A stretch of 64,000 nucleotides of DNA from Sporolactobacillus sp. (GCA_047722915.1 JBDNZQ010000011.1:20535-84534); one strand, 5' to 3'; shown: positions 1,046-56,387, counted from the stretch's first letter. Made by a program: numbers and translations. Notes: generated from the sequence alone by a model not told the origin.

Positions 1046-1142
1046 GCGTTAAGAATGTATAAAATGTCAGCGGAACTAAGTCTAAGAAACAGCTAAGGTT
1101 CTGCGCTCTCCCAAGGACTTAGCCTCGCCAAGTTTTTCTAAC
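1046..1142 (+). repeat. M1 dispersed intergenic repeat, copy 1 (forward)
   Basis: GCGTTAAGAATGTATAAAATGTCAGCGGAACTAAGTCTAAGAAACAGCTAAGG...GGACTTAGCctcGCCAAGTTTTTCTAAC. It aligns along its whole length with the other M1 copies listed below. Confidence 0.85.
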
Positions 1143-1272
1143 CAGTAAAGAAAGTCTATGATTTTTGCTGCCATACCGGAAAAAGCGAAGGTGCGAGAGC
1201 GCCTTGCGGGAACCGCGACTAGCGAAACCGAAACGCGGTTGCTTTAAAGGACGGGGTTGCTGTTTGCCCGGT
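1143..1272 (+). repeat. M2 GC-rich repeat module, short variant, fused to M1 copy 1
   Basis: It shares ATGATTTTTG..CATACCGG.AAAA.CG.AGGTG.GAG.GCGCCTTGCGG and CCGCGACTAGCGAAACCG.A.CGCGGTTGC.TTAAAGGAC..G...TTTGCCCGGT with 56388..56579. It lacks about 55 nt of internal sequence present there. Confidence 0.8.
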
Positions 1273-1367
1273 GGAGCACGCAGAGTCCTTACCAGAAGGC
1301 GACCCGCTGTGCTGTGGCAGTCCGCATACGCTTTCGCTTCACATGGCACTCATGTTGCTTTTTTTTA

Positions 1368-1396
1368 TTTACAACATCTGTCAGACGGTTTATAAT
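1368..1396 (+). promoter_or_regulatory. Sigma-A type promoter of the ABC exporter leader
   Basis: TTTACA (1368..1373), a 17-nt spacer, then TATAAT (1391..1396). Confidence 0.55.
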
Positions 1397-1432
1397 GTAA
1401 TTATTCGTTTTAATGAGAGGAAGGTGAGTACT

Positions 1433-1531
1433 ATGGAAACAAATATTCGGATGAAGTACACAGCAATCCGTATGGCTGTTTTCATGAATGTGCCGGCACT
1501 CACCTTCCTTTTCTGTTTACGCGACGTTTAA
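1433..1531 (+). CDS. Candidate 32-aa leader peptide (METNIRMKYTAIRMAVFMNVPALTFLFCLRDV)
   Basis: The ATG is preceded by the RBS GAGAGGAAGGTGAG. It lies between a consensus promoter and a terminator hairpin, upstream of the ABC exporter genes. The layout resembles B. subtilis bmrB-bmrCD. Confidence 0.35.
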   Translation: METNIRMKYTAIRMAVFMNVPALTFLFCLRDV

Positions 1532-1571
1532 TCGTCTGATCGGTATTTTGCCGGTCATTTGTCTGAGCGGT

Positions 1572-1614
1572 CGCAGAAAAAGGGGAGACCTCTTTTTTTG
1601 CGATCGTTTTAATT
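1572..1614 (+). terminator. Leader terminator/attenuator upstream of the ABC exporter
   Basis: 14-bp stem 1572..1585 / 1589..1602 (including G-U pairs) with a 3-nt loop, followed by the T-rich ATCGTTTTAATTTT. It ends 30 nt before the TTG start at 1645. Confidence 0.5.
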
Positions 1615-1644
1615 TTGGCGTTTTTGGGGTAAGGAGGCATTTTT

Positions 1645-3405
1645 TTGCGTATTTTCTTTGAACTTGGTTGGTTCTTTAAGCAGGAGAAATATCGTTATTT
1701 AATGGGCATTGTTTTTCTCATTGTATCCAGTTTTTTATCACTGGTTCCTCCCTATGCTGTAGGGGTGCTCGTCGATCGGATGCGCACGCGGACAATGACG
1801 GCTGCTGTCCTTGGCGAATGGATCGGCCTGCTTGTTCTAGTCGGCATTATTTATTATATAACAGGTTATGTGTGGCGGCAGATGATTTTTGGCACGGCTC
1901 AGCAGCTCGGCCGTCAGTTGCGCCGCTCGCTCTACCGGCATTTTACTCAGTTGTCACCGTCTTTTTATCAGCAGCATCGAATTGGCGACTTGATGGCACA
2001 CGCTACCAACGATGTGAACGCGGTGCAGGGAGCCGCAGGTGACGGCATTTTAACGCTCGTCGATTCACTGACGATGGGCGGCATGGTAATTGTCACCATG
2101 GTAACTTTGATTAGCTGGAAGCTAACCGTTGTTGCATTGCTGCCGATGCCGATTATGGCGGTGTTGACGATGCACTACGGTAATTTGCTTCACGATCGCT
2201 TTGGAAAAGCACAGGCCGCTTTTTCAGATCTGAACGATGAGGTGCAGGAGAGCGTATCAGGTATTCGCGTCATCAAAGCGTTCGGCGAAGAAGAAGCACA
2301 GATTGAGTCATTCCGCCGAGCGTCGGCGGATGTAGTTGACAAAAACGTCGAAGTGGCAAAAATTGATGCACTGTTTGACCCAACGATTACGCTCGTTGTT
2401 GCCGCAAGCTTTTTTCTCGCACTTATCGTTGGCGGATTCGGTGTTGTACACGGCAGTCTGTCACTTGGTCAGCTGACGAGTTTCACCCTTTATCTCGGCC
2501 AACTGATTTGGCCAATGCTTGCTTTCGGCTTTCTGTTCAATACTGTCGAGCGCGGCAGTGCGTCCTATGATCGTATTCGCCGGTTGTTAGCCGTAAAGCC
2601 GACGATTGTTGACCGACCGGGCGCGAGTGCGCATGTGCCAAGCGGAGACATTCATTACGATCTGCCCAACTTTAGTTACAACAACAGCTCTGTCCCTGCG
2701 CTCAGAGAGGTGGCATTCACTTTGCCGCGCGGGGGAACGCTTGGTGTCGTCGGTAAGACCGGTGCCGGTAAGACGACATTGCTGCGCCTGCTGCTTCGTG
2801 AATTTGACTTGCAGAAAGGAAAAATTACAATCGGTGGGTTGGGTATTCAAGAGGTGACACTCGATGCCCTGCGCTCAGCCATCGGCTATGTACCGCAGGA
2901 TCACGTGCTTTTTTCAGCGACTATTGGTGAGAACATCGCCTTTGCCCGTCCGCAGGCGACGCAGGAAGACATTGAGCGGGCGGCCAGACTGGCCAGCATC
3001 CATGCGGATATTCTCCAGTTTCCTGACGGCTATGAAACGATTGTCGGAGAACGCGGCGTGACGCTTTCAGGCGGCCAGAAACAGCGCATTTCCATTGCGC
3101 GGGCACTGCTGGCTGACCCGGAAATTCTCATTTTTGACGACTCATTGTCCGCTGTCGATGCGCGGACAGAGACCGCCATTCTTCAGGCACTTAAGCAGGA
3201 ACGCCAGCATAAAACGACGCTGATTGTCGCCCACCGCTTGAGTGCGGTGGAGCATGCCGACTTGATTCTTGTGATGAAGGAGGGCACCATTGCCGAACGA
3301 GGCACGCACAGTCAGCTGCTGGCGCGCGGCGGTTGGTATGCAGACATGCATGAACGTCAGCAGCTTGAAGAATTAGTCGCAGAGGGAGGTCGGTCGCGTG
3401 ACTGA
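1645..3405 (+). CDS. ABC exporter permease/ATPase, subunit with the degenerate catalytic site (YheI/BmrC-like)
   Basis: 586 aa with an N-terminal 6-TM domain. Walker A is GKTGAGKTT and the signature is LSGGQKQR. Walker B is ILIFDDS, so Asp replaces the catalytic Glu. TTG start with RBS AAGGAGG. Confidence 0.9.
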   Translation: MRIFFELGWFFKQEKYRYLMGIVFLIVSSFLSLVPPYAVGVLVDRMRTRTMTAAVLGEWIGLLVLVGIIYYITGYVWRQMIFGTAQQLGRQLRRSLYRHFTQLSPSFYQQHRIGDLMAHATNDVNAVQGAAGDGILTLVDSLTMGGMVIVTMVTLISWKLTVVALLPMPIMAVLTMHYGNLLHDRFGKAQAAFSDLNDEVQESVSGIRVIKAFGEEEAQIESFRRASADVVDKNVEVAKIDALFDPTITLVVAASFFLALIVGGFGVVHGSLSLGQLTSFTLYLGQLIWPMLAFGFLFNTVERGSASYDRIRRLLAVKPTIVDRPGASAHVPSGDIHYDLPNFSYNNSSVPALREVAFTLPRGGTLGVVGKTGAGKTTLLRLLLREFDLQKGKITIGGLGIQEVTLDALRSAIGYVPQDHVLFSATIGENIAFARPQATQEDIERAARLASIHADILQFPDGYETIVGERGVTLSGGQKQRISIARALLADPEILIFDDSLSAVDARTETAILQALKQERQHKTTLIVAHRLSAVEHADLILVMKEGTIAERGTHSQLLARGGWYADMHERQQLEELVAEGGRSRD

Positions 3406-5182
3406 AACGAAACAGGAGCGGAGCGTGCGAAGGCGCACTTTTTTCCGGCTTATGGGTTATTTGAAAATTGAGAAAAAGAGACTTGTAACAGCTCTGCTTT
3501 TTCTCCTAATTGCTACGGGAGGAACGGTCATCGGACCGATCTTGCTGAAAATTTTTATTGATTCTTACCTTACGCCGCGAATTTTTCCAATGGGTCCGCT
3601 GCTTGTACTTGGTGGAGCCTTCTTCATGTCCTACGTCGTGAATGCGGTCTTTAATTATTATCAGGTCATGCTCTTTCAGAAAATTGCACTGCATATTATT
3701 CAGCAGATGCGCGTCGACGTATTCAGCAAAGTTCAGCATCTTGGCCTCGCTTTCTTCGACCAAGTGCCCGGCGGCAGCCTTGTCTCGCGGATTACGAACG
3801 ATACGGAGGCTATTAAAGATCTTTTTGTCAGTGTGCTGTCGGTGTTTGTCAGCAGCGCAATAACGATGGTTGGTATTTTCGTCGGCATGTTCGTGCTCGA
3901 TGTGCGGATGGCACTTTTATGCCTTTTGCTTATGCCGTTCATTTTAATTTTGATGGGCGTCTACGGCCGGCTGAGCTCGGCGATCTATCATGTCGCCCGT
4001 GCTAAATTGAGCCAGCTCAATGCGCGATTGAACGAATCGCTGCAAGGCATGGCAATCATCCAGGCTTTGCGCCAGCAAAAGCGGATGCGCAAGGAGTTTG
4101 CTGCTATTAACGACGCGCATACCGCGGCACGCATGAAAAGTGTACGACTGAATGCGCTGCTGCTGCGCTCGGCCGTGTACTCGGTATATTTATTTGGCTT
4201 AATTCTTGTGCTCAGCTATTTTGGCATCGCGTCGATCGGCGGCATCGTGTCGATCGGTGTGCTGTATGCTTTTGTTAATTATCTTGACCGTTTCTTTGAC
4301 CCGGTCAATCAAATTATGATGCAGCTGACAATCTATCAGGAAGCGCTCGTGTCGGCTGAGCGTGTGTTTATTCTGCTTGACGACAAGCGGATGGCGCCCG
4401 GTAAGGCGGGTCATGCGCAGCCGACGATTGCAGAAGGGCGAGTGGAGTTTCGCGACGTGTCATTCTCGTATGATGGAAAAGTTGACGTGCTGAAACATAT
4501 TTCGTTTACAGCCGCTCCGGGAGAAACGGTAGCACTCGTCGGTCATACCGGCAGTGGCAAGAGCTCTATTATTAATTTGTTGATGCGTTTTTATGCGGTC
4601 AACCGCGGAGCCATTCTCATTGATGGCGCGCCGCTGCAATCTTTTTCCGACGAGGTGCTGCGCAGCCGCATGGGGCTTGTACTTCAGGATTCCTTTCTGT
4701 TTGTCGGGGATGTCGCCGGTAATATTCGGCTCAGTCGGTCGGTCAGCGACGAGGCGGTTCACGAAGCTGCAGAATTTGTGCAGGCTGATCAGTTTATCAA
4801 AAAATTGCCCGAAGGCTACGGGCAGATCATCGGTGAACGAGGTGCTTCCTTCTCAAGCGGACAGCGGCAGCTGCTCGCCTTTGCACGCACAATGACGCTC
4901 GACCCGAAAATACTGATTCTTGACGAGGCGACAGCAAGTGTGGATACAGAGACAGAAGAGGCTATTCAGCGCGCGCTGAAGAAAATGCGCAGCGGCCGGA
5001 CGACAATCGCCATTGCGCATCGGTTATCGACAATTCAGGACGCCGACCAGATTCTCGTGCTTCATCGCGGTGAAATCGTGGAGCATGGCAACCACCAGTC
5101 GTTGCTTCAGAAAAAGGGTTTGTATTACCAGATGTATCGCCTGCAGAGCGGGGCAGTGGACGGCAAGGCGATCATTTTATAA
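3398..5182 (+). CDS. ABC exporter permease/ATPase, subunit with the consensus catalytic site (YheH/BmrD-like)
   Basis: 594 aa. Walker A is GHTGSGKSS. Walker B is ILILDEATS, with the catalytic Glu present. The signature is the deviant FSSGQRQ. It overlaps the upstream gene by 8 nt. Confidence 0.9.
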   Translation: MTETKQERSVRRRTFFRLMGYLKIEKKRLVTALLFLLIATGGTVIGPILLKIFIDSYLTPRIFPMGPLLVLGGAFFMSYVVNAVFNYYQVMLFQKIALHIIQQMRVDVFSKVQHLGLAFFDQVPGGSLVSRITNDTEAIKDLFVSVLSVFVSSAITMVGIFVGMFVLDVRMALLCLLLMPFILILMGVYGRLSSAIYHVARAKLSQLNARLNESLQGMAIIQALRQQKRMRKEFAAINDAHTAARMKSVRLNALLLRSAVYSVYLFGLILVLSYFGIASIGGIVSIGVLYAFVNYLDRFFDPVNQIMMQLTIYQEALVSAERVFILLDDKRMAPGKAGHAQPTIAEGRVEFRDVSFSYDGKVDVLKHISFTAAPGETVALVGHTGSGKSSIINLLMRFYAVNRGAILIDGAPLQSFSDEVLRSRMGLVLQDSFLFVGDVAGNIRLSRSVSDEAVHEAAEFVQADQFIKKLPEGYGQIIGERGASFSSGQRQLLAFARTMTLDPKILILDEATASVDTETEEAIQRALKKMRSGRTTIAIAHRLSTIQDADQILVLHRGEIVEHGNHQSLLQKKGLYYQMYRLQSGAVDGKAIIL

Positions 5183-5243
5183 ATGAACATGCGCTTCATA
5201 AAAAGGCGGTCGCGGCATGATGTCGAGCGGCCGTTTTTCTAAT

Positions 5244-5342
5244 ACGCCAGGAAAGTCTAAAAATTTCAGCGGAACTTAAGTTTTAGAGAAGTTAAGGCTC
5301 TGCCGCTATCCAAAAGACTGGGCAATGCCCAGTTTTTCTTAT
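5244..5342 (+). repeat. M1 dispersed repeat, copy 2 (forward)
   Basis: ACGCCAGGAAAGTCTAAAAATTTCAGCGGAACTTAAG...GTTAAGGCTCTGCC...GACTGGGCaatGCCCAGTTTTTCTTAT. It follows directly after a GC-rich hairpin plus TTTTTCT downstream of the ABC genes. Confidence 0.85.
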
Positions 5343-5484
5343 ATGTTTAAAAATTTGGCAACATTGGCAGGCATTAAAAACAAGACATAGGGGTGAGGGC
5401 ACCTTGCGTGAGACACGTGCCAGACTTTCCGGAAGCATTGTCTTTTTATTACTGGAAACACGATCAACAGGCTTTGCGAACGTC

Positions 5485-6660
5485 TCAATGGGTATCCGTC
5501 GAGTGTGACTGTGTCCGCATGGCCGGATTGACGGTGTCGTCGGTCGATTCTGGTTTGGCAGCTTGTGGACGGCGCATGTTCTTCGGTAATTCCGCAGCAG
5601 TTTTATCGCCCAAAATCAGTGGGACGGCAGCTAAGTCAAGGCCTTCCTGTTCAAAAATATGTAGGATGGCAAGATTATATTTTTCCTTAATCTGTGTCCA
5701 TTCATTAAAATCAATTGTTTTTGTGAAAAACTGGATAGATAAATCAATGCCGGTTTGTGAAATTTTATCGACATAGACAAGCTGGCCCTCGCTATAGATG
5801 TCATTGCCGCCGCCAAGCAGCTCGCGCAAGTCCGAGAGACAACGGTCAAGCTGTGCATTGTTTGATGCGGGTGACAAGGAGGCGGTAATTGTGACGCGTC
5901 GTTTGCCGATGCGTGACATATTTGTAATGGGTTGGTTGGCGAGTGTTGAGTTTGGAACGGTGACGAGCGCTTGATCGGCGGTGCGAATTTTTGTCGAGCG
6001 AAAATTGATGTCTTCGACAATGCCTTCGATCGTTCCGGATTGAATCAGTTCGCCAATGGTGAATGGTGCGTCCGTGATGATGACGAGACCGCCAAAAAAA
6101 TTGCTGAGCGTATCTTTAGCAGCCATAGCGATGGCTAGACCGCCGATGCCCAGTCCGGTGATGAGTCCGGTGACGTGGTAATTCCATTGGTCGAGAATGG
6201 CAACGGCTGTGAAAACGACAACAAGGAATTTGCCGATTTTTGTCAAGAAAGGGATGAGAATATTATTGAACTGCAAGTCAAAGTGATCGTGTACTTGGTG
6301 GAAAAAAAGGCCAATAGTGTTGCAGAACAAATAGAATCCCCAGCCGATGGCAAGCGTCGTCAGTGATGAATAAATGCGGGTGACGCCATACATGGCGCTG
6401 CGGGGAACCGGCAGATAGGACAGTGAGAGGAAAAGTCCGCTGGCCATGAGCACAAGGGAAAGCGGCTTGCGAAAGCTGATTAGTAAAGCTCCGTCAATTT
6501 CACTTTTGCTTCTCTGAATAAGCACTTTCAGCAACTTTGGCATGTATTTTGAAAAAAGAATGGATGCTGAGATGAAAAGAAAAAAAATACCAAATGCAAT
6601 CAAGCCGTCACTCCATGAAATTTGTGAAATCCAAGCTATTTTCTGCCAAAAACGTTCCAT
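5485..6660 (-). CDS. Mechanosensitive ion channel (MscS family) protein
   Basis: The track ORF is 5485..6753. I prefer the internal ATG at 6660 (MERFWQKI...), which has RBS GGAG 8 nt upstream. The protein has TM helices followed by the MscS beta-domain (ELIQSGTIEGIVEDINFRSTKIRTADQALVTVPNS). Confidence 0.8.
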   Translation of the reverse strand: MERFWQKIAWISQISWSDGLIAFGIFFLFISASILFSKYMPKLLKVLIQRSKSEIDGALLISFRKPLSLVLMASGLFLSLSYLPVPRSAMYGVTRIYSSLTTLAIGWGFYLFCNTIGLFFHQVHDHFDLQFNNILIPFLTKIGKFLVVVFTAVAILDQWNYHVTGLITGLGIGGLAIAMAAKDTLSNFFGGLVIITDAPFTIGELIQSGTIEGIVEDINFRSTKIRTADQALVTVPNSTLANQPITNMSRIGKRRVTITASLSPASNNAQLDRCLSDLRELLGGGNDIYSEGQLVYVDKISQTGIDLSIQFFTKTIDFNEWTQIKEKYNLAILHIFEQEGLDLAAVPLILGDKTAAELPKNMRRPQAAKPESTDDTVNPAMRTQSHSTDTH

Positions 6661-6728
6661 TGTGTTCACTCCATATGACCGTTCATTCCATTCATGATAA
6701 CATGAATGATACTGTACGAAAAGCCGCC

Positions 6729-7355
6729 TTACATTTTTGCGAGTCGCGCACATTTTGCCAATGTGAGCTCCTCTGCTGCGGTGTCGGTATGCATGGTTAG
6801 ATTGTGCAGGATGCGCGGCTTCGCAGAAGGATGGCTGCGATTACTTGATAAGGAGCATCTCCACAGCCTGCTTGGCGTGTAAAATTTAGGGGAATGGAGG
6901 GGGAGTGGACATTGATGCATAACCATGCTGTTTTTCACACAGTACTTGGCTTTTATGGTGTGATTGCACAAACGGATCGGTTGGTGTTCCATGGAATGCG
7001 CGCAACGTGTTACCGTTTGTTCTTGGCGCCTGCGTCCCTCCGGTTACAGAGCTGACAAGGCGCATGGGGATGCGCCTTGATGCGGCATTTACGGATGTGA
7101 AGACGTTCGGGTCGCTCATGTGGTGGGGGCGATCAGCTGCATGATCGATGATGGCGCCCCGCCGACGCTTTCAGTCTTAAAACGGCTGTCTGCTTGGTTG
7201 GCAGCCGCAGAAGAAGGCTGTGTGGGTGCTCTCACACACGCCGCCGTGCGCTTTTTAAGGTGAAATCTAGGACATACAGTGTGCATGCACGGCTTCAAGT
7301 GTTCCCCATTCGTCAGCAGCCGCCGCAGTGACCGGAGCGACTCGTCAATGTTCAA
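6729..7355 (-). pseudogene. Possible decayed C-terminal (little-finger) remnant of a Y-family DNA polymerase
   Basis: Three overlapping ORFs in three frames lie directly downstream of the yolD-like gene. They contain pieces such as SRFKTESVGGAP and RRIPMRLVSSVTG. These weakly resemble the HRSKT..PT and VR.VSV.LS motifs of YqjW/UvrX. There is no catalytic N-terminal half. Confidence 0.3.
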
Positions 7356-7361
7356 AAACGG

Positions 7362-7980: not shown

Positions 7981-8125
7981 TTAGTCTAAGTCCTCAAATC
8001 GGCCTTATGGGGCTGTGTTTCCCAAAAGATGTTCACCTGACTGGTCGACAGCCGGTCCGTGTGACTGCAGGCTTATCGCATGGTACTGACGCGTGAAGTC
8101 TATCTCGGCTTCCGATCGCCCGTTT
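7981..8125 (-). repeat. Possible strongly degenerate M1 copy
   Basis: The ends resemble M1 (TTAGTCTAAGTCC... and ...GCGTGAAGTCTATCTC versus ...CGCTGAAGTCTTTATAC). It lies directly behind the pgmB terminator in the usual orientation. The interior is poorly alignable. Confidence 0.25.
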
Positions 8126-20371: not shown

Positions 20372-20510
20372 GTTGTTCCGTCACGAAAAAGCAGAGCGTG
20401 TTCATCGGATCCGTTTCATGTTGCACATTCGTGCCGGTTAAAAGAGACTGGGTCACTCCGCGTCTCTTAAAGGCAGTCGTATTGCACTTGACTTGACAAT
20501 TCAAGCGATC

Positions 20511-20609
20511 TTAGAAAGACTTGGCTCTGCCAAGTCATTTGGACGACGGCTGAGCCTTAGCTTTTCTTAGACTGAGTCCCGCTGAAGTCTTTATACTTTC
20601 GTAACGTAT
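20511..20609 (-). repeat. M1 dispersed repeat, copy 3 (reverse)
   Basis: The - strand reads ACGTTACGAAAGTATAAAGACTTCAGCGGGACTCAGTCTAAGAAAAGCTAAGGCTCAGCC...GACTTGGCagaGCCAAGTCTTTCTAA. Confidence 0.85.
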
Positions 20610-21853: not shown

Positions 21854-21952
21854 TTAGAAGAACTTAGCGCTGCTAAGTCCCTTGGGACGATGGCGGAGCC
21901 TTAGCTTGTCTTGGACGGGTTCCGCTGAAATCTTAGTACTTTCTTATCTTGT
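21854..21952 (-). repeat. M1 dispersed repeat, copy 4 (reverse), left flank of the low-GC islet
   Basis: TTAGAAGAACTTAGCGCTGCTAAGTCCCTTGGGACGATGGCGGAGCCTTAGCTTGTCTTGGACGGGTTCCGCTGAAATCTTAGTAC... The ~80-nt core differs at only 4 positions from copy 5. Confidence 0.85.
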
Positions 21953-22069: not shown

Positions 22070-22402
22070 TCACTTCAAACCAATCGAAAGTATCGTATAA
22101 CATAGCTTTGTTAAGAGCGATCGAATTAAATCGTGGTTTACGCTTCTTATAAAGCTTATCATTGAACAGCAGTTTGACTCGTTGGATAGGTTATGTTTTT
22201 CATTAACGGCTATTAGGCGTTCCCAGAAGGTAGATCGGAATTCACGACACTTGTATCGTTTGCGGTTCAATTGTAGACCCACTTGCTCTGAACAAATGGT
22301 CAAATCCATAATTAGTTGTTTTCTTGAGCTGTGTCCGTACAACTTGTAAAAACCACATTCAGAACAATGTTCAGATGGTTTGATTGCTTCAGCTTTAAAC
22401 AT
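22070..22402 (-). mobile_element. ISL3-family transposase N-terminal fragment (remnant)
   Basis: 110 aa with the zinc-finger-like pattern HCSECG..KLYGH..R.L.DL...G..V.L...RKRYKC. This matches ISL3 transposase N-termini. The second Cys pair is degenerate and the catalytic domain is absent. Confidence 0.45.
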
Positions 22403-23084: not shown

Positions 23085-23182
23085 TTAAAGAACTTAGCGC
23101 TGCCAAGTCCCTTGGGACGACGGCGGAACCTTAGCTTGTCTTGGACGGGTTCCGCTGAAATCTTAGTACATTCGTAACGTAT
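23085..23182 (-). repeat. M1 dispersed repeat, copy 5 (reverse), right flank of the low-GC islet
   Basis: TTAAAGAACTTAGCGCTGCCAAGTCCCTTGGGACGACGGCGGAACCTTAGCTTGTCTTGGACGGGTTCCGCTGAAATCTTAGTACATTCGTAACGTAT. Confidence 0.85.
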
Positions 23183-28971: not shown

Positions 28972-30243
28972 TTGTTCCATTTTGGGCAGCGGAAGGGGAG
29001 AGAAGCATTGCAGCGCGGCCAAGGGAGAATTATTTTTCATCTGGATATGAACTCTTTCTTCGCTTCTGTCGAGCAGGCTCATCATCCTGAATTGCGCGGC
29101 AAACCGCTGGCCATTGCCGGGCGTCAGGAAGAGCGACACGGCATTGTTGTTACAAGCAGTTACGAAGCCAGACAGTGGGGTGTGCGCACGCCAATGCTCG
29201 TCAGCGAAGCCGTGCGGCTTTGCCCGCAGTTGATCATTCGCCAGCCCGATTTTGAATTATACCGGGCAACTTCTGCGATGCTTTTTAAAATGCTGCGGCG
29301 TTATACCGAGCGAATCGAGAAGGCGTCGATTGACGAAGGCTATCTTGATATGACGGGTTATGCCGGCACGGAACCGATTATCTCACTTGCCATGCATATC
29401 CAGCGGCGAATTCTCCGGGAGATGAAGCTACCGTCAAGCCTTGGCATTTCTCCAAACAAGTTTTTGGCAAAAATGGCATCGAATATGAAAAAGCCGCTTG
29501 GATTGACTGTTTTGCGGCTCAGAGATATTCAAGAAAAACTTTGGCCGCTGCCGATCGGTACGATGCACGGTATCGGTGCAAAAACTGAAAAAAAATTGAA
29601 ACGGCTTGGCATTCAGACCATTGGAGACCTGGCAGGCAGTGATCGCCTGCGGATGGCTGAACGGTTTGGCCAGTACGGCGTGAAGATGTGGGAACGAGCC
29701 AATGGTCGTGACGATCGACCGGTTGATCCGGAGGCATGGGAACGCTACAAGACGATCGGCCATTCCGTGACTTTGGCGAAGGATACCGTGTCGCCCGATA
29801 GGATCGCCGAAACTTTTGAATCTCTCGCTCAAAAGCTGGAAAGTCAAGTGAAACGTGAACACGTTGTGGCTTATGAGTTAATGATTACGATTCGTTATGC
29901 GACTTGGCAAACGGCCACCCGACATTTTTCGCTGAAACAGCCACTCTATGAAGCCAAGGCCATCAGCGAGCAAGCCCGGCTGCTCTTTCTTTCAATGTGG
30001 GCGGGTCAGGCTGTACGACTGCTCGGTATTACGCTTGGTGATTTTCAGCCGTTTGCCTCAGCGACAAAGCAACTTGATCTTTTTTCTTATACAGAGGATA
30101 TTCGCGCAGAAGCACGGACTGCGCTCATTGAGGATATTCGCGCACGTTTCGGTGCGGAAGCGCTCAAGCCTGCGGCGGCGCTTATCGCCGGTAAGCCGAC
30201 AAATCATGAGTTACGCAAGCGTACGGACAGCGGTCCGCTATGA
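28972..30243 (+). CDS. dinB: DNA polymerase IV (Y-family, PolY1/DinB)
   Basis: Motifs IFHLDMNSFFASVE, SIDEGYLD and a helix-hairpin-helix. A TTG at 29008 after RBS GGAGAG is the likelier start. There is no LexA box upstream. Confidence 0.85.
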   Translation: MFHFGQRKGREALQRGQGRIIFHLDMNSFFASVEQAHHPELRGKPLAIAGRQEERHGIVVTSSYEARQWGVRTPMLVSEAVRLCPQLIIRQPDFELYRATSAMLFKMLRRYTERIEKASIDEGYLDMTGYAGTEPIISLAMHIQRRILREMKLPSSLGISPNKFLAKMASNMKKPLGLTVLRLRDIQEKLWPLPIGTMHGIGAKTEKKLKRLGIQTIGDLAGSDRLRMAERFGQYGVKMWERANGRDDRPVDPEAWERYKTIGHSVTLAKDTVSPDRIAETFESLAQKLESQVKREHVVAYELMITIRYATWQTATRHFSLKQPLYEAKAISEQARLLFLSMWAGQAVRLLGITLGDFQPFASATKQLDLFSYTEDIRAEARTALIEDIRARFGAEALKPAAALIAGKPTNHELRKRTDSGPL

Positions 30244-30264
30244 GAAAGACTTGGCGGCAAGTCG
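30243..30264 (-). repeat. Fragment resembling the terminal hairpin of M1
   Basis: AGAAAGACTTGGCggCAAGTC compared with AGAAAGACTTGGCtctGCCAAGTC in copy 3. Confidence 0.3.
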
Positions 30265-31581: not shown

Positions 31582-31679
31582 TTAGAAAAACTTGGCGAGG
31601 CCAAATCCTTTAGACGATGGATGAGCCTTAGTTTTTCTTATACTTCGTTTCGCTGAAATCTTTATATTTTCTTAACGTA
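31582..31679 (-). repeat. M1 dispersed repeat, copy 6 (reverse)
   Basis: The - strand reads ACGTTAAGAAAATATAAAGATTTCAGCGAAACGAAGTATAAGAAAAACTAAGGCTCATCC...GATTTGGCctcGCCAAGTTTTTCTAAC. Confidence 0.85.
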
Positions 31680-37918: not shown

Positions 37919-37933
37919 TTCAAATCATACATT

Positions 37934-38000
37934 CAGAAAGTATAAAAATTTCAGCGGAACTAAGTATAAGAAAAAACTCAGTCTTTCTCAAGGCATAAAA
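37934..38000 (+). repeat. M1 dispersed repeat, copy 7 (forward, 3' truncated)
   Basis: CAGAAAGTATAAAAATTTCAGCGGAACTAAGTATAAGAAAAAACTCAG... The terminal hairpin is missing. Confidence 0.7.
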
Positions 38001-39928: not shown

Positions 39929-40105
39929 GGAAAATTTCAGCCGATTAGAGGCAGGGGGCACGCCGGCGCCTGCGGGAGAAGCGTGCCGAGCGAGACCCCG
40001 CAGGGCATCACTTGTCTGAGGAGGCTTGCAATGCGCCCGCGGCAAGCGAGCAATCGGAGCACTGTTGCTTTAAAGAATCGGGCACTTTTGTTCGGTTTTT
40101 CTAAC
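39929..40105 (+). repeat. M2 GC-rich repeat module (with a short M1-like 5' piece)
   Basis: GGAAAATTTCAGCCG resembles the M1 core. The rest is ...GCGCCTGCGGGAGAAGCGTGCCGAGCGAGACCCCGCAGGGC...TCTGAGGAGGCTTGCAATGCGCCCGCGGCAAGCGAGCAATCGGAGCACTGTTGCTTTAAAGAATCGGGCACTTTTGTTCGGTTTTTCTAAC. This aligns with 56430..56579. Confidence 0.7.
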
Positions 40106-40185
40106 AAGATGTGAAAAAAGAATAGGGAGCGGCGCTGCTCTAGCTGTCATAGTCGTTCGGGACAATCCATAGAGTAATTAATAGA

Positions 40186-41587: not shown

Positions 41588-41669
41588 AAAACGAATGACA
41601 GGCTGTTTGATAATGAGGTCATATTTTGTTTGAACAGTAGCCGTCTGTTCTTGTGAAAGCTCCGGTTTA

Positions 41670-41755
41670 TCTGAGAAGGGGCACAACGTTCGCGACAAGC
41701 GCGCTGGAGCACTAGACTGTAAAGAACCGGGCGATTTTTGCCCGGCTTTTCTAGT
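41670..41755 (+). repeat. M2 repeat module, 3' part only, acting as the fur terminator
   Basis: TCTGAGAAGGGGCACAACGTTCGCGACAAGCGCGCTGGAGCACTAGACTGTAAAGAACCGGGCgatttttGCCCGGCTTTTCTAGT. Terminal hairpin CCGGGC/GCCCGG plus a T-run. Confidence 0.7.
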
Positions 41756-41853
41756 ACGTTAAGAAAGTATAAAGACACCAGAAGAATCAAGGATAAGAAA
41801 AGCTAAGCCTCTGCCCTTGAACAAAGACTGGCAATGCGTCCTATTATTCTCTA
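41756..41853 (+). repeat. M1 dispersed repeat, copy 8 (forward, degenerate 3' end), directly behind M2
   Basis: ACGTTAAGAAAGTATAAAGACACCAGAAGAATCAAGGATAAGAAAAGCTAAGCCTCTGCC...GACTGGCAATGCGTCC... Confidence 0.75.
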
Positions 41854-49766: not shown

Positions 49767-49804
49767 CAAAAAAAGTATGGGTATGCCGTCTCTTATAGGT
49801 GTGA

Positions 49805-49835: not shown

Positions 49836-50005
49836 CGCACTAAAAAGAACAGGGCATGTTAAAGCGTCAGAATCTCATTTGTCTGAGTGTCCCGCGACAA
49901 GTCAACAACCGGAGCCCTGTTGTTTTAAAGGATTTATTAGAACAAAGTTTTTTTCTAACCTAACAGAAATTGTGACGGTGTTGCCTGCCGCTGTTTGAGC
50001 GATGC

Positions 50006-50034: not shown

Positions 50035-50071
50035 CTCGTATCAATGGAAACGGTGAGGAGGAGATGCAGCA

Positions 50072-50521: not shown

Positions 50522-50738
50522 CAACCTCATCCTGCCTCTGATAAAATGGGTCCGGCAGCCGCGACATGCTGTGCATCAGCCTATCCGGCAGTTGCCGGGG
50601 CGGTAAACTAACAACGTAGAAAGACTTCAGAGGGGAGAAGCCCAGACCAGTTGGATCCATTCCAATGAACAACTAGAGGATGTCACGCAGTGCCCGAACT
50701 GAATAAGGATTTCAAAACTAGTTATACAAGGAGGGAAA

Positions 50739-51761
50739 GTGGTGAGTAAAATTCGCGAACAGACGTGGCGCTTCGATCGTCCGGTTTACATCGAGTCAAC
50801 CGGGACAACAACGGGACCGCTTGAGGGACGTGGACCGCTTGGCGGCACGTTTGATACATGTTATGCAGTTCTGAATTGCGGCGAAAAAGACTGGGTAAAT
50901 GCAGAACGCACGCTGTTGCGGCGCGCGGTGAATTTTTGCTTGGCAAAAGCAGGAAAGCAGACAAGCGATATAGATCTCTTTCTTGCCGGCGATTTGATGG
51001 ATCAGACTGTAACGGCTAATTTTATTGCTCGTGAACTGCGCATCCCCTACTTTGGGATGTTTGGTGCCTGCTCAACGTCGATGGAAACGCTGGCACAAGC
51101 GGCACAGCTTGTCGAAAGCGGCTATGCAGATCACGCGCTGTGCGCGGTCAGCAGTCACAATGCGACAGCCGAGCGTCAGTTCCGCTATCCGACAGAATAT
51201 GGCGGACCCCATAATTTGACGCAGACGTTCACCGTGACCGGTGCAGCTGCGGCTCTGATCGGGCGTGAGAAGGGCAAGGTGCGCGTGTGTGAGGCAACGA
51301 TTGGCAGAGTCATTGATTGGGGAATCGGCGATCCGAACAATTTGGGAGCGGCGATGGCACCGGCTGCCGCCGACACAATCTGGCGCCATTTTCAAGATAC
51401 GGGGCGCACCCCGGATGCCTATGATTTGATCGTCACCGGCGATCTTTCAAGCGTCGGCTCGCCCCTGCTCGTTGAACTGCTCTCGGAAAAGGGACTGGCA
51501 ATTCATCGTCAACACAAAGATTGTGGTTTGATGATCTACAGTCCCGATCAACCCGTTAATGCGGGGGGAAGCGGAACCGCCTGCTCGGCGGTTGTTACAT
51601 TTGGCTACCTTTATCAGAAGCTAGCTGAGGGGACGATGCACCGCGTATTAGTCGTTGCGACCGGTGCTTTAATGAATCAGGCAACAACGAAACAAAAGGA
51701 TACGATTCCCTGTATTGCCCACGGCATCGTTCTTGAATCGGCAAGGGAGGATGAGCCATGA
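50739..51761 (+). CDS. spoVAD: Stage V sporulation protein AD
   Basis: 340 aa with a thiolase-like fold, containing [10 protein letters not shown] and [19 protein letters not shown] start after RBS AAGGAGGGA. Confidence 0.9.
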
Positions 51762-52108
51762 TTTTCTTAAATGCATTTCTTGTCGGGGGAGCCATCTGTG
51801 TTGTGGGACAGTTGCTGCTTGATGTTTTTAAGCTGACACCCGCGCATATCGTTGCCCTCTTTGTTGTGCTTGGTGCACTGCTTGATACGTTTGGCATCTA
51901 TGATCACTTGATCGATTTTGCCGGTGCAGGGGCGACGGTACCGATCACAAGCTTTGGTCATGCCCTGCTGCACGGCGCCATGTCGGAAGGACATGAACAC
52001 GGTTATCTCGGCATCGCCATCGGTATTTTCAAGCTGACCTCGGCCGGTATCACCTCAGCCATTTTGTTTGGATTTCTTGCTGCGCTTGTTTTCAAACCGC
52101 GCGGATAA
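51758..52108 (+). CDS. spoVAEb: Stage V sporulation protein AE (AEb type)
   Basis: 116 aa beginning [26 protein letters not shown] overlap with spoVAD. Confidence 0.85.
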
Positions 52109-52135
52109 TGGGAACAAAGGAGCCCGGATATACTG

Positions 52136-53611
52136 ATGCTTGCAGAACATACGCCGATAGACGATCAGCTGGTAAAAAATGAAGGCATACTTGATCCGCT
52201 GCTTGACTTCGGACCGCACAACTTTGATCTTGGCGTGCGCGATTTTCTGATTCTCGGACGCAGCTGTCGAATTTATTATACGAACAGTCTGGCGGATGGC
52301 ACGCTCATCGCCATCCTGATGAGCGAGCTGATGCGGCTCGTGCATGACAGCTCGCACGAAAGCCATGTATTTGAAACCATCAAGCAGCACCTCGTTCACT
52401 ATCAAGTCGAAGAGGCGGCGACGCTGAATGACGTCGTCGATAAAATGTTAACGGGACGCATTGTGCTGCTCATTGATGGCGAAACATCGGCCTTGATCAT
52501 TGATATTCGACATTATCCAGGGCGACAACCGCAGGAGCCGGATGTTGAAAAGGTAGTGCGCGGCGCAAAGGACGGTTTTACTGAAAACATTATTGAAAGC
52601 TCGGGCCTGATCCGCAGACGTATTCGCGATCCGCGGCTGCGCTGCGAACTGATGCAAGTCGGTCAGCGTTCAAAAACGGACGTTTGTCTGTGCTACTTGA
52701 AAGACGTGGCTAATCCTCAGCTGCTGAAGACGCTCCGTAAAGAGCTGCAAGCGATTCAAGTGGACGGCATTCCGATGGCAGACAATGCGCTCGAAGAGTT
52801 TGTTGTGAAGCAAGGTTGGAATCCCTATCCGCTTGTTCGCTTTACCGGGCGACCGGATGTTGCCGCGACTCACTTACTTGAAGGTCATGTCATCATCATT
52901 ACGGATACATCGCCGAGCGTCATGATTCTGCCAACGACGTTGTTTCACCATCTGCAGCACGTCGAAGAGTACCGGCAAGTCACTGCCGCCGGCAGCATGC
53001 TGCGATGCACTCGGCTTTTGGCCGTTTTAGCCTCCGTATTTCTTGTGCCGCTCTGGCTGTTGCTCGTGCAGGATCACCTGCTGCCGCAGGGGCTCGGCTT
53101 TATCGGTCCGAATAGCCACCATTACCATCTGCCACTGCTCGTTCAAATTCTTATTGCCGAGGCAGGGATTGAAGCTTTGCGTTTGGCGGCCATTCATACA
53201 CCGACCTCGTTGTCCACTGCGCTCGGCTTGATTGCTGCCGTGCTGATCGGGCAAATCGCTATTCAAGTCGGCGTGTTTATCCCCGAGGTCATTCTTTACA
53301 CGTCAGTTTCAGCAATTGGCGGTTTTGCAACACCAAGCTATGAATTACAGCTGGCTAATAAAATGACAAGATTGCTGCTGATTTTAGCAGCCGGTTTACT
53401 TCAGGTGCCTGGATTCATGCTTGCCGCAACGCTGATGATCGTCTATTTAGCCCATGTGACGAATTTGAATACACCGTATCTGTGGCCCTTTATCCCATTT
53501 AATCCGACTGGATTGTATAATGTGCTTATCCGCCGCGCACTGCCAACGGCAACTCTGCGTCCGAGCATCGTACGTCCGCTCGACAAATACCGGCAGCCGA
53601 AGACAAAGTGA
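52136..53611 (+). CDS. spoVAF: Stage V sporulation protein AF (GerA-family)
   Basis: 491 aa. The N-terminal soluble domain and C-terminal TM bundle match GerAA/SpoVAF proteins (RRIRDPRL, LFHHLQ). Its position between spoVAE and lysA matches B. subtilis. Confidence 0.85.
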   Translation: MLAEHTPIDDQLVKNEGILDPLLDFGPHNFDLGVRDFLILGRSCRIYYTNSLADGTLIAILMSELMRLVHDSSHESHVFETIKQHLVHYQVEEAATLNDVVDKMLTGRIVLLIDGETSALIIDIRHYPGRQPQEPDVEKVVRGAKDGFTENIIESSGLIRRRIRDPRLRCELMQVGQRSKTDVCLCYLKDVANPQLLKTLRKELQAIQVDGIPMADNALEEFVVKQGWNPYPLVRFTGRPDVAATHLLEGHVIIITDTSPSVMILPTTLFHHLQHVEEYRQVTAAGSMLRCTRLLAVLASVFLVPLWLLLVQDHLLPQGLGFIGPNSHHYHLPLLVQILIAEAGIEALRLAAIHTPTSLSTALGLIAAVLIGQIAIQVGVFIPEVILYTSVSAIGGFATPSYELQLANKMTRLLLILAAGLLQVPGFMLAATLMIVYLAHVTNLNTPYLWPFIPFNPTGLYNVLIRRALPTATLRPSIVRPLDKYRQPKTK

Positions 53612-53945
53612 AGCTTGCCTATCATAGTCATTGGTGATAAAATGAATTAAATTTAAACGGTATTATTTTTAACTGATAAGGAGTGCGGCACGGATCAGTG
53701 AGGGGCGGAGGATGACGAAGTTCCTGCAAGATTTGATCGCCGAAGCGGATGTTTTTTTCGCAAACGGCAGGCCGGTCTTCAGATGAATGAAGCGGCAGGC
53801 TGCCGTTTGCGTGTTGCAGCGGAGCACTTGTCGGGCGCGGTGTAAGCAAAGTTGGACCTGTGTTTCCGGACGCAGGTTTTTGTGCGTTTGGAGGAAATGG
53901 TTTGCGCAGCGTCACTACAAGCGCAGTGCAGAGAGGGGCAGATAG

Positions 53946-55271
53946 TTGCTAAACGGAATGGAACAGAATGAAAAAGGGCATCTCATCATTGGCGGATGCG
54001 ATGCGGTTAAGCTTGCGGAAACATATGGGACACCGCTTTATGTCTATGACGTGTCAATGATTCGTCAGAACATCAACGCTTTTAAACAGGCCTTTGCAAG
54101 CCACCCGAAGATCAACTGGCAGATCGCTTATGCAAGCAAGGCTTTCTCCTCAACGGCTATGGTTCAGCTGATTAAGGAAGAGGGACTCTCGCTTGATGTC
54201 GTCTCAGGCGGCGAGCTTTATACGGCACTTCAGGCGGGTATGCCGGCAAAGAACATTCATTTTCATGGCAACAACAAGTCCGATGATGAACTTGCCTTTG
54301 CCCTTGATTCAAACATTGGACTGATCGTTGTCGATAATTTTTATGAGCTTGAACGTTTGGAAGAGTTGTGTGCCCGTTGCGGTCAAACGATGGACATATT
54401 GCTTCGCATCACGCCGGGCGTTGAGGCACACACGCATGAATTTATTATGACCGGGCAAAGTGATACGAAGTTTGGATTTAATCTGGAGGGCGGGATGGCG
54501 GATCAAGCGGTGCGCCAAGCTATGTCTGCCGAGCATCTGTCATTAAAAGGCTTACATTGCCACATCGGCTCGCAGATCTTTGAGACGGAGGGCTATGCGC
54601 GTGCGATTGCTAATATCTATGCCGCGATTGAAAAATGGATAGCCGACCCCGGATTCATACCGGCAGTGATGAACGTTGGCGGCGGCTTTGGCATTCAATA
54701 TACCAAGCGTGACCGTCCACTCCCTGTCAGTGCCTATGTTGACCGCATTGTGGCGGCCGTGGAGGCGGAAAGTGTGCGATTGCATATAGATACGCCTTCA
54801 ATTTGGGTGGAGCCCGGTCGCCGCATCGTCGGTGAAGCGGGCATGACACTTTATACCGTCGGCGCGATCAAGACGATTCCCGGGGTTCGTACATATATGT
54901 CGGTTGACGGCGGCATGACCGATAATATACGGCCAGCCCTCTATGGCGCTATGTATCGGGCGATTTGCGCCAATCGGGTCGGGGAGCCTTCAGACACAGA
55001 CTACACGATTGCCGGCAAATGCTGCGAAACGGGTGACCTACTCATTAAGGGTGCCATGCTTCCGGCAGCATGCACGAGCGGCGACACGCTTGCTGTTTGC
55101 GCGACTGGCGCTTACGGTTACGCCATGGCCAGCCACTACAATCGTTTACCCAATCCTGCCGTTGTTTTTGTCGAAGACGGCGAAGCGACTGTTGTTGTCC
55201 GGCGGGAAAGCTATGCAGATCTGACTCGTTTTGATGTACCGCTGAAAACAAAACTTGCACACGAAGGTTAA
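53946..55271 (+). CDS. lysA: Diaminopimelate decarboxylase
   Basis: 441 aa. TTG start after RBS GAGAGGGG. It contains YGTPLYVYD, the PLP lysine in YASKAF, and GGGFGI. Confidence 0.9.
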   Translation: MLNGMEQNEKGHLIIGGCDAVKLAETYGTPLYVYDVSMIRQNINAFKQAFASHPKINWQIAYASKAFSSTAMVQLIKEEGLSLDVVSGGELYTALQAGMPAKNIHFHGNNKSDDELAFALDSNIGLIVVDNFYELERLEELCARCGQTMDILLRITPGVEAHTHEFIMTGQSDTKFGFNLEGGMADQAVRQAMSAEHLSLKGLHCHIGSQIFETEGYARAIANIYAAIEKWIADPGFIPAVMNVGGGFGIQYTKRDRPLPVSAYVDRIVAAVEAESVRLHIDTPSIWVEPGRRIVGEAGMTLYTVGAIKTIPGVRTYMSVDGGMTDNIRPALYGAMYRAICANRVGEPSDTDYTIAGKCCETGDLLIKGAMLPAACTSGDTLAVCATGAYGYAMASHYNRLPNPAVVFVEDGEATVVVRRESYADLTRFDVPLKTKLAHEG

Positions 55272-55440
55272 CTGTGCACAATGGTGTAGAGATGGGTATA
55301 ATAAGGAAGGATGCGGCTGGCGCTTCAAATGCGGCTACCAGCCGAGGAATGTGCCGGCTGTTCATATCGGTTGTTTTTGCACTTAAAGTTGTGACAGATG
55401 AGGATGCACGGCATTATTTTTTGGCAACGAGGGGTTTGAC

Positions 55441-55803
55441 ATGCTGATTCGTTATAAAAAATGCTATGAGAAAATTGCTGTTGGTCTACTGTCGCTTCTG
55501 TCAACTGCAGCGGATATTAAAAACGTTTTTCAAACGGTGCGTCTTTATGAAGACGACGATCGTTTGCAGCTGTTTTTGTGGAAGCAGGGGGAAGACATTA
55601 TAGGTGTGCTGGGTATCCAGATCATGGCTTCAGACAGGGCAGTGATCCGCCATATCAGCGTCAATCCGTCATATCGTGAAGAAGGGATTGACGTGCAGAT
55701 GTGCGATGCGCTGGCGGCTTTTCTGGGGGCTGACGTCAAAATTATACCGCTTGAGGAGGCGGAAGAGACGTTGCCCGGCACAGCGGAAAAGTCGGTGGAT
55801 TGA
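55441..55803 (+). CDS. ribT: RibT-like GNAT protein
   Basis: 120 aa. MLIRYKKCYEKIAVGLLS...LFLWKQGEDIIGVLGI...IRHISVNPSYR closely parallels B. subtilis RibT (MLIRYKKSFEKIAMGLLS...IRHISVNPSHR). Confidence 0.8.
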   Translation: MLIRYKKCYEKIAVGLLSLLSTAADIKNVFQTVRLYEDDDRLQLFLWKQGEDIIGVLGIQIMASDRAVIRHISVNPSYREEGIDVQMCDALAAFLGADVKIIPLEEAEETLPGTAEKSVD

Positions 55804-56286
55804 TGCTCTCAAACGATTTTTTATTTTTTATTTCGAGAGGCTTAAAGATCTAGCTGCGCAGGAGCAGCGGCTAGCTAAATTAATAGAATCATCTCACCGG
55901 ATTGGCTTTTTTCGTCAAAACGGTAAAAGAAAAAGGTGCGGCGCATGCATGGTCGCTGCATCTTTTTCTTGCACGATAATGGGTTTCAAGACTGTTTGCG
56001 AGCAGCTGCATGATGCTGTTTTTTCGAAGCGGCAAACCGGATGAACGGTCGCATACGCCGGGTCTGTTAGGGATGTGCGCCCGGTTCACACCAAACGTAC
56101 AGTCGCAGCATGCACGCTTGAAACCTGCGTGGGCAGACATGCAAATTGTCGCTCACATGAGCGCCGCCGGCAATCTGATCAGGACGCACGACAATAAGTG
56201 AAACAGACTAATCAGGCGGTGTAACCGGATGCAGATGCTTGCCCGCGCCTGTATTTTACCTTATACTTTGATGGATCCTTTCTTAT

Positions 56287-56387
56287 ACGTAAAGGAAGAA
56301 TAAAGATTTCAGCGGGACTAAATATTAAGAAAAAGCTAAGACTCTTCTGTTATTTTTAAGGGCTTGGCGAAGCCAAGTTTTTCTAAC
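56287..56387 (+). repeat. M1 dispersed repeat, copy 9 (forward)
   Basis: ACGTAAAGGAAGAATAAAGATTTCAGCGGGACTAAATATTAAGAAAAAGCTAAGACTC...GGCTTGGCgaaGCCAAGTTTTTCTAAC. Confidence 0.85.

Follow-up and report, generated by a model that had tools for sequence, protein, structure and literature searches.

M1, an intergenic repeat of about 97 nucleotides that follows T-rich tracts and the direction of transcription in a subset of Sporolactobacillus

We analyzed a 64,000-nucleotide stretch of DNA from Sporolactobacillus sp. (GCA_047722915.1, JBDNZQ010000011.1:20535-84534), referred to here as the window, in which a non-coding repeat designated M1 is dispersed between positions 1,046 and 56,387. M1 begins at a fixed point after a T-rich tract, runs with the direction of transcription, and ends in a hairpin and T-run of its own. 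Nine copies had been described in a sequence-only reading of the window, and all of them were recovered at the positions and on the strands given there. Scoring of the whole window, without filters, with a covariance model built from 27 M1 copies (R1) yielded eight full copies (79-118 bits) and one truncated copy (55 bits); an nhmmer profile recovered the same nine with E values of 1e-16 to 8e-37. Beyond these, R1 found no match in the window better than E = 1, and two segments that the sequence-only reading had offered as possible relics (7981-8125 and 30243-30264) received no support from the covariance or profile scans. The consensus calculated with MAFFT agrees with the one proposed earlier. 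The copies are also as dense as had been claimed, nine per 64 kb or about one per 7 kb, and every one is intergenic, being bracketed by long open reading frames (ORFs). Mean pairwise identity among the window copies is 69%, and the tail motif TTTTTCTAAY with which the unit ends occurs seven times in the window compared with 0.5 occurrences expected.

Five copies lie on the + strand. The first (1046..1142; 94.3 bits with R1) follows the terminator of an hsp20 gene, identified with Pfam, and its flank GCTTGGCTTTTTTGT abuts GCG at the start of the element; directly 3' of it nhmmer detects a member of a second repeat family, M2 (1158-1297). The copy at 5244..5342 (101 bits) follows the second ABC-transporter gene in a spacer that is convergent with an MscS gene, with GGCCGTTTTTCTAAT preceding the initial ACG. 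A copy that retains only the 5' half of the unit (37923-37998; 55.2 bits) lies after the terminator of a czcD-like gene (AGAAGAACCAAGC...GCTTGGTTCTTCT); nhmmer aligns it to model positions ~5-61, and unrelated sequence stands in place of the 3' half. Between fur and the DUF4227-xerD genes lies a diverged full copy (41756..41853; 79.2 bits) with a decayed, degenerate 3' hairpin. It is preceded by the 3' part of an M2 element (41662-41755), whose tail, CCGGGCG..GCCCGG-CTTTTCTAGT, supplies the T-tract. The last copy (56287..56387; 91.9 bits) lies upstream of scpA and is followed by another M2 element (56403-56581).

The remaining four copies are on the - strand. The copy at 20511..20609 (115.5 bits) follows an EamA transporter gene and is convergent with the gene for a 2-oxoacid dehydrogenase E2 subunit; it is preceded by a hairpin (GCCGGCTGC...GCAGCTGGC) and a run of seven Ts. 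The copy at 21854..21952 (97.6 bits) is located between a fragment of an ISL3 transposase gene and an EamA gene, both on the - strand, while that at 23085..23182 (87.2 bits) occupies the divergent spacer between a GyrI-like gene (-) and a response regulator gene (+) and points the same way as the downstream GyrI-like gene. These two copies are 90% identical to each other and represent one sub-variant (CCCGTCCAAGACAAG). The ISL3 fragment that lies between them is a 110-amino-acid ORF (22070-22402, - strand) that corresponds to the Zn-ribbon N-terminus only of an ISL3-family transposase; it is the decayed remnant of an insertion sequence (IS), and no recognizable IS ends are found there. The highest-scoring copy (31582..31679; 118.4 bits) begins directly after the amtB terminator, with AAAAAGCCTCCCGCAAAGGAGGCTTTTTCTTGT joined to ACG, and is convergent with a gene for a metallo-beta-lactamase (MBL)-fold protein.

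The complete M1 unit spans ~97-98 nt, from ACGTTAAG to TTTTTCTAA(T/C), so that it ends in TTTTTCTAAY; its G+C content is 41-42% compared with 49% for the genome. The 5' half, which we designate module A, is A-rich, about 50 nt in length, and best conserved in the core TTTCAGCGGAAC-N-AAGTATAAGAAAA; the alignment of M1 copies reveals no conserved pairing within it. The 3' half, module B, consists of a small GGC-TCA-GCC hairpin, a variable spacer, a CTTGGC-NNN-GCCAAG hairpin, and the TTTTTCTAAY tail. The stem of the second hairpin comprises 6-11 bp, reaching 11 pairs when G-U pairs are allowed, and encloses a 3-nt loop. A second genome, the metagenome-assembled genome (MAG) of Sporolactobacillus sp. 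WK069_bin.8, contains at least 35 M1 copies in the ~170 kb sampled with nhmmer. In these copies, the small hairpin of module B lengthens to ACGAAGGC/GCCTTCGT and has an A-run in front, because of which it resembles a terminator for the opposite strand.

The 3' stem-loop and T-run are conserved, as the sequence-only reading had noted, although its "always" is too strong: the hairpin is degenerate in the copy at 41756 and absent from the truncated copy. Within the 3' hairpin, 91% of the aligned cells are paired, and mismatches also occur, among them an A-C in copy 1046. Compensatory double changes, likewise claimed before, are present in three of the 11 pairs and amount to five cells, compared with 1.3 expected from shuffles; with several mismatches beside them, this evidence is thin, and the five compensated cells, real but modest support, weakly suggest selection on the structure of the hairpin. 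The terminal inverted repeat matches GTTA(A)GAAA with the reverse complement of TTTCTAAC. It is shorter and less clean than the ~10 nt reported earlier, extending over 8-9 nt and requiring one indel. Where two units are joined head to tail, this repeat turns the junction TTTCTAA-TACG-TTAAGAAA into a near-palindrome.

M1 contains no ORF, and no codon periodicity was found among the 27 copies; a coding reading, in which one frame of module A gives TLRKYKDFSGTKSKKS followed by a stop, was dropped for the latter reason. A sigma-70 scan detected no sense-strand promoter, the sole 9/12 match being antisense in one copy. Inspection by eye likewise revealed a misfit of spacing or sequence to sigma-A, extended -10, extracytoplasmic function (ECF; GGAAC), and sigma-B/D/E/F/G/H/K promoters and to CiaR/PhoB-like repeats. 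An integron attC-like reading was rejected because the core-site polarity is reversed (GTT...AAC, not AAC...GTT), and likenesses to Chi (AGCGG), RTP/Ter, parS, and dif were ruled out on orientation or sequence.

The 5' boundary of M1 is defined by the sequence that precedes it. The 27 solo copies with an intact 5' end share the flank TTTTT-N-T-T-R-T immediately before ACG, with T at positions -8, -7, -6, -4, and -1 in 22-25 of the 27 and nothing conserved farther upstream. In ~60% of copies, the junction is preceded at a distance of 2-16 nt by the end of a clear GC-rich hairpin, which indicates that in these cases the T-tract forms the tail of an intrinsic terminator belonging to the upstream gene. 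The 3' boundary is also sharp, with unrelated sequence beginning after TTTTTCTAA. No target-site duplication was found; in each copy, the left flank, a T-tract followed by NNT, does not match what follows TTTTTCTAA. The copy in locus L156 may serve as an example, with TTTTATTTT before ACG on the left and ACAATT after CTAAT on the right.

Analysis of 35 loci revealed a strict relation to transcription. All 21 M1 loci in spacers between co-directional genes are co-oriented with those genes and none is reversed, an outcome with a probability of ~5e-7 under random orientation. Ten of the other loci are in convergent spacers, which are enriched, and four are in divergent spacers. All four copies on the - strand of the window follow genes of that strand, and the GC skew there remains positive, indicating that the polarity of M1 tracks transcription rather than the replication strand.

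Two arrangements other than the solo full copy were observed. In the WK069_bin.8 MAG, M1 units repeat every 97-98 nt in exact head-to-tail arrays, which have the junction GCCAAGTTTTTCTAAT to ACGTTAAG (L146 3324-3527, L137 5696-5954, L140 7042-7472, and L150 4191-4339); one of these arrays is so long that it left a gap in the assembly. The other arrangement is the copy with module A alone, seen about nine times and ending right after the AAGAAAA run. Among these are copies between rplF and rplR (L151), between ruvA and ruvB (L135), upstream of pnp, and a short distance upstream of cmk; those at rplR, cmk, and ruvB lie 22-40 nt upstream of the ribosome-binding site or start codon. The rplF-rplR spacer in Bacillales measures a few tens of nucleotides. 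Because this spacer is normally so short, the 62 extra nucleotides that it contains here point to an insertion. The T-tract and terminator setting of the 5' end, the co-orientation with neighboring genes, the division into two modules with copies reduced to module A, the arrays in relatives, and the M2 family go beyond what the sequence-only reading had reported.

M1 is not confined to the window, and in this respect too the sequence-only reading was borne out. Logan short-read contigs of the source organism break at M1, one (L124) inside copy 20511 and another (L127) at copy 31582, which is the expected effect of a genome-wide repeat on de Bruijn assembly. Both contigs derive from run SRR26216075; proteins identical to those of the window occur only on contigs of SRR26216075 and SRR26216074. 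Two other Sporolactobacillus genomes carry M1, namely WK069_bin.8 and a third lineage, the MAG GCA_047718855.1, which has one full copy. When one genome per species was searched by pattern scans, true M1 was found only in WK069_bin.8 among the matches listed, and an exact 16-nt pattern scan of genome contigs returned chance matches except for one Sporolactobacillus MAG locus. The 21-kb syntenic loci of S. terrae, S. kofuensis, S. laevolacticus, strain CQH2019, and the organism of ERR11138639 contain no M1; that of S. putidus has only a module-B-like relic. Pattern scans of JGI metagenomes and of plasmid and phage collections yielded no M1, and in IMG/VR the specific 3'-end pattern was unmatched, while two matches to a degenerate pattern were taken for chance and not checked. 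A XerD-based search for related loci revealed no close relatives, and the window's SpoVAD is 74-80% identical to those of named Sporolactobacillus species, which places the source organism in this genus with no sequenced species close to it. Rfam 15 gave no match in the window at gathering thresholds and only chance-level matches in permissive scans of M1 copies, and a text search of the literature found no description of M1. The absence of a match to a named family agrees with the sequence-only reading. M1 is a previously undescribed repeat, apparently confined to a subset of Sporolactobacillus, with insertion rules that differ from those of typical miniature inverted-repeat transposable elements (MITEs).

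Orthologous proteins of the window organism and WK069_bin.8 are 49-92% identical (typically 65-85%), the family consensus of M1 is 92% identical between the two, and copies within the MAG show a mean pairwise identity of 82%. A consensus this similar among drifting copies suggests that the M1 source sequence has been conserved or exchanged between species. Within a syntenic 20-kb block from czcD to scpA, M1 is patchily distributed among species at the czcD, NUDIX-spoIIM, fur, and GNAT-scpA spacers. The diverged full copy in the fur-DUF4227 spacer of the window corresponds to module A only in WK069_bin.8 (L130 9621-9673) and to a faint trace in L134. In the GNAT-scpA spacer, a composite of M1 and M2 with an equal junction is found in the window and in GCA_047718855.1 (L166 15120-15411); the 3' hairpin and tail of the two M1 copies differ in the loop only, whereas their modules A have diverged. 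An apparent 13-kb insertion relative to the WK069_bin.8 MAG was discarded because the window's E2 gene, at 30% identity, is not orthologous to that of the MAG.

We favor, with moderate confidence, a model in which M1 is a non-autonomous, non-coding repeat, mobile now or formerly, that targets the tails of terminators and carries a terminator of its own. The sequences themselves show the membership of the family, its anatomy, context, polarity, arrays, and distribution, from which mobility, the activity of the terminator, and selection against module B in operons are inferred. M1 would insert in a single orientation immediately 3' of the T-rich tract TTTTTNTTRT, a target that in most cases would be the U-tract-encoding tail of an intrinsic terminator; insertion after such tails would place M1 immediately behind genes and in their orientation. 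Module B, with its CTTGGC-NNN-GCCAAG hairpin and TTTTTCTAAY, would itself act as an intrinsic terminator, and in the WK069_bin.8 copies the central hairpin and A-run could terminate transcription of the opposite strand as well. Since each copy recreates a hairpin and T-tract at its end, exact head-to-tail arrays and chains of M1 and M2 would result. Where termination is harmful, as within operons and directly upstream of start codons, copies reduced to module A would be those that survive. The lack of a target-site duplication, the weak inverted repeat, and the strict polarity lead away from a classical DDE cut-and-paste MITE, which is unlikely, and toward a strand-specific mechanism. A MITE-style interpretation based on the short inverted repeat is weakly supported, with no target-site duplication and no related transposase seen. 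Candidates for the moving activity would be an HUH or single-stranded DNA (ssDNA) transposase, a site-specific recombinase that acts at the TTTCTAA-TACG-TTAAGAAA junction, and copying primed by the T-tract.

Several observations weigh against this model. About 40% of copies follow a T-tract without a detectable hairpin, and the copy after ruvA lacks any T-tract. In some full copies (L146 3421 and L158), only 27-37 nt separate the element from the start codon downstream, too few to accommodate a promoter, so either their hairpin terminates poorly or the element has a role in expression. The excess of 3'-truncated copies could stem from the copying mechanism instead of selection. Neither an autonomous partner nor a transposase was found in the ~300 kb examined, and no multi-copy protein that would be a transposase candidate is encoded by the ~370 ORFs from the window and from the loci of relatives. 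At the level of the family, the whole 97 nt and not the ends alone are conserved, which is unusual for MITEs and as expected of a functional RNA. Finally, two M1 sites, those in the fur and GNAT-scpA spacers, look orthologous, which could mean long selective retention and not mobility; alternatively, they may be independent insertions at the same terminators.

It is tempting to speculate about how such an element might spread. M1, and possibly M2, might enter through the T/U-tract at the ends of transcription units, either by retroposition of an A-tailed antisense RNA, copied with the T-tract as primer in the manner of short interspersed nuclear elements (SINEs), or by the action of an ssDNA or site-specific recombinase that recognizes a terminator hairpin with its T-tract on the non-template strand. 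We regard this proposal as a long shot. It would nevertheless explain the fixed junction, the polarity, the lack of duplication, the excess of 3' truncations, and the self-targeted arrays and, if true, would place M1 in a new class of mobile elements that target terminators, separate from group IIC introns.

The main rival to a mobile repeat holds that M1 is a multicopy family of small RNA (sRNA) genes or cis-acting RNA genes, which we consider unlikely. Module A would then be a promoter or regulator-binding region, with a GTTAAG-N5-ATAAAG direct repeat and TATAAG as the -10 element, and the product would be a short transcript that ends at the module-B terminator or a unit released from read-through 3' untranslated regions. 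The terminator-like hairpin and T-run that close the unit are consistent with this proposal, as is the occurrence of head-to-tail tandem arrays alongside dispersed copies, an organization comparable to that of the LhrC sRNAs of Listeria and the csRNAs of streptococci. However, no sense-strand sigma-70-type promoter is detected, the -35 element is poor (ATAAAG) when aligned to TATAAG, the geometry by eye is unlike that of CiaR or PhoB-type boxes, and a transcript started from TATAAG is predicted to be only ~45-50 nt long and to consist essentially of hairpins. Conservation of the whole unit across species, with consensus sequences that are 92% identical, and the resemblance of neighboring M2 to a genuine structured RNA conserved throughout the genus also speak for an RNA gene; the 5' half of M1, on the other hand, has no conserved secondary structure, M1 has no Rfam match, and orthologous copies decay, as in the fur spacer, where the WK069_bin.8 MAG has half a copy and L134 a trace. 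Module-A-only copies 22-40 nt upstream of the ribosome-binding sites or starts of rplR, cmk, and ruvB lie where a promoter could act, but the proposal leaves unexplained both the presence of truncated copies in ribosomal-protein and ruvAB operons and the nucleotide-precise start after a T-tract or terminator.

Two further explanations invoke either host benefit or a larger element. In one, to which we assign a rather low probability, M1 is a terminator or insulator cassette, a "back-up terminator", that the host keeps to block read-through and that has spread between T-tracts by recombination, gene conversion, or microhomology template switching, with no dedicated transposition. M1 is always downstream of genes and co-oriented with them, convergent spacers are enriched (10 of the 35 loci), and copies in the WK069_bin.8 MAG have a hairpin and T-run on both strands; yet most copies follow a terminator that is already competent, so that the benefit is unclear, and the hairpin of the fur-spacer copy in the window has decayed. 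The GNAT-scpA copies, which keep the 3' hairpin and tail (loop aside) while module A has diverged, are as expected of such a cassette, but neither the conservation of the hairpin-less module A nor its insertion into tight operons is accounted for. Although T-tracts on both sides of the units would provide a substrate for slippage or template switching, and no transposase was found in the ~300 kb, the 5' boundary, precise to the nucleotide in more than 30 copies, remains unexplained, and the copy number and lineage-restricted bursts (82% identity in the MAG, 69% in the window) resemble selfish proliferation. Very improbable, in our estimation, is the other explanation, that M1 derives from a larger element of which the copies would be remnants, such as the ends of an IS of the ISL3 family, fragments of a group II intron, or prophage att sites. 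The ISL3 Zn-ribbon transposase fragment between copies 21854 and 23085 suggested such a link, which was rejected: M1 and the fragment have no ends in common, no typical inverted repeat joined to M1 surrounds it, and only one of the nine window copies adjoins it. Insertion behind an intrinsic terminator, in gene direction, is known for group IIC introns (PMC4424553), but M1 matches no group II intron or other Rfam family even at E<=5-10, its 3' hairpin is not shaped like domain V/VI, and truncated M1 retains its 5' side, the reverse of aborted intron retrohoming, in which the 3' side is retained. Moreover, the loci examined contain no pair of half-copies around a long insert, and phage and plasmid collections were unmatched.

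Comparison with described repeats supports the view that M1 stands apart. Among repeats already described, SPRITE of S. pneumoniae (PMC3049150) is its nearest analogue, but M1 does not belong to that family. Both are AT-rich, non-coding Firmicute repeats of ~100 bp in which a stem is followed by a T/U-rich tract; both lie near the 3' ends of genes with enrichment in convergent spacers, lack a demonstrable target-site duplication and a matching IS, and occur in few related species (PMC3049150). SPRITE consists of an 18-bp duplex and a long U-rich tract with AAAA/TTTT ends, shows a 63% leading-strand bias, and is present in 30 copies per 2.2 Mb (PMC3049150), a density exceeded by that of M1 in the window (one per 7 kb). 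The published description sets the two apart. They have no sequence relationship, M1 has an unstructured 50-nt module A and two short hairpins in place of the single 18-bp duplex, and the fixed T-tract or terminator junction, the absolute co-directional polarity, the tandem arrays, and the module-A-only derivatives are features of M1 and not of SPRITE.

MITEs such as RUP, BOX, Correia, and bcr1 are, like M1, short, non-coding, multi-copy, intergenic, and lineage-restricted; BOX is also modular, and these elements can carry promoters or terminators and affect neighboring genes. M1 differs from them in its lack of a target-site duplication, its imperfect inverted repeat of 8-9 nt, the absence of a related transposase among the loci seen, its strict orientation to transcription, its precise targeting of T-tracts, and its exact tandem arrays. 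Group IIC introns are the best-documented case of mobile elements whose insertion sites lie immediately behind intrinsic terminators and whose orientation is that of the terminated gene (PMC4424553). M1 shares this target behavior, which is not evidence of membership: it measures ~97 nt, has no ribozyme domains, no reverse transcriptase (RT) ORF, and no Rfam intron match (E<=5-10), starts with GTGCG in only two or three copies, and is truncated with a polarity opposite to that of aborted retrohoming.

Palindrome-associated transposable elements (PATEs) of the IS200/IS605 family and repetitive extragenic palindromes (REPs) with their RAYT transposases resemble M1 in that they generate no target-site duplication, have no real terminal inverted repeats, insert with a polarity 3' of a short AT-rich target, and can form clusters. 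The foot of the right-end hairpin of M1 lies 10 nt from the end, and the flank TTRT before the junction is conserved, as might be compared with an IS200/IS605 PATE; in IS608, the right end likewise has a subterminal hairpin ~10 nt from its terminus. In contrast to such PATEs, the sampled M1 loci contain no Y1 gene and the first hairpin from the left begins ~52 nt in; in contrast to both PATE and REP systems, the polarity of M1 in the window follows transcription and not the replication strand. Nor is M1 a member of the REPs or of bacterial interspersed mosaic elements (BIMEs), as its unit of 97 nt is much longer than the imperfect palindrome of 20-40 nt that makes up a REP, its arrays are strictly head to tail instead of alternating in orientation, and half of it is unstructured. 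Bacillaceae-1 RNA (RF01690) and M2 are, like M1, multi-copy, terminator-ended, non-coding units in Sporolactobacillus; M1 does not match RF01690 at permissive thresholds and, unlike M2, has no conserved long-range structure.

Small interspersed repeats are widespread in bacteria, and the rules that M1 follows are unusually clean. M1 therefore offers a tractable case for finding an enzyme or process that targets terminators and for studying the effect of selfish DNA on the boundaries of transcription units. M1 would add or strengthen terminators at about one per seven kb, and it breaks up short-read assemblies of these spore formers, which produce lactic acid.

The second family, M2, is also dispersed; its members are ~140-180 nt in length and GC-rich, and M1 adjoins them on either side. 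In addition to the three M2 elements described above, two are present in the window (39931-40108 and 49866-49957). Elsewhere, M2 was located at L170 5840-6129 and 16820-16945, L171 19283-19633, and L166 15263-15411, and the family is widespread in Sporolactobacillus, including S. terrae and S. kofuensis. Its core reads ...GCCTGCGGGA...GAGACCCCGCAG...TGAGGAGGCT..GCCCGCGGCAAGCGAG.AACCGGAGC and has no Rfam match. The predicted long-range structure comprises 29 pairs, six of which show compensatory change. M2 ends in a hairpin unlike that of M1, but the TTTTTCTAAY tail is common to both families, as is the terminal hairpin in L166. In S. terrae (AP021853, L170 6193-6260), a Bacillaceae-1 RNA (RF01690, 63.5 bits) lies between the M2 core and a CCGGGCG..GCCCGG-TTTTTCT terminator, an order that suggests that M2 and Bacillaceae-1 can form one transcription unit; the window contains no match to Bacillaceae-1 RNA. 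The adjacency of M1 and M2 shows that non-coding modules with terminator ends form chains in these genomes. A 19-nt palindromic motif, CTTGAATTGTCAA(G/A)TCAAG, may be a tiny third module. An exact copy lies just 3' of M1 copy 20511 (20487-20505, - strand), and in the WK069_bin.8 MAG the motif is inserted between ACG and TTAAG at the 5' start of an M1 copy (L157 4099-4117).

Two other features of the window were noted. The M1 copy upstream of scpA is separated from the GNAT gene by approximately 480 nt of apparently non-coding sequence (55803-56280), while the GNAT-scpA spacer of the WK069_bin.8 MAG measures 92 nt in total; intergenic regions of the window genome are generally inflated relative to those of its relatives. 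Upstream of lysA, a lysine riboswitch (53670-53837, + strand) scores 25 bits against an Rfam gathering score of 30. The corresponding riboswitches in relatives score 99-105 bits in L130, L166, and L167 and a marginal 36 bits in L168, and the aptamer in the window is divergent or decaying.

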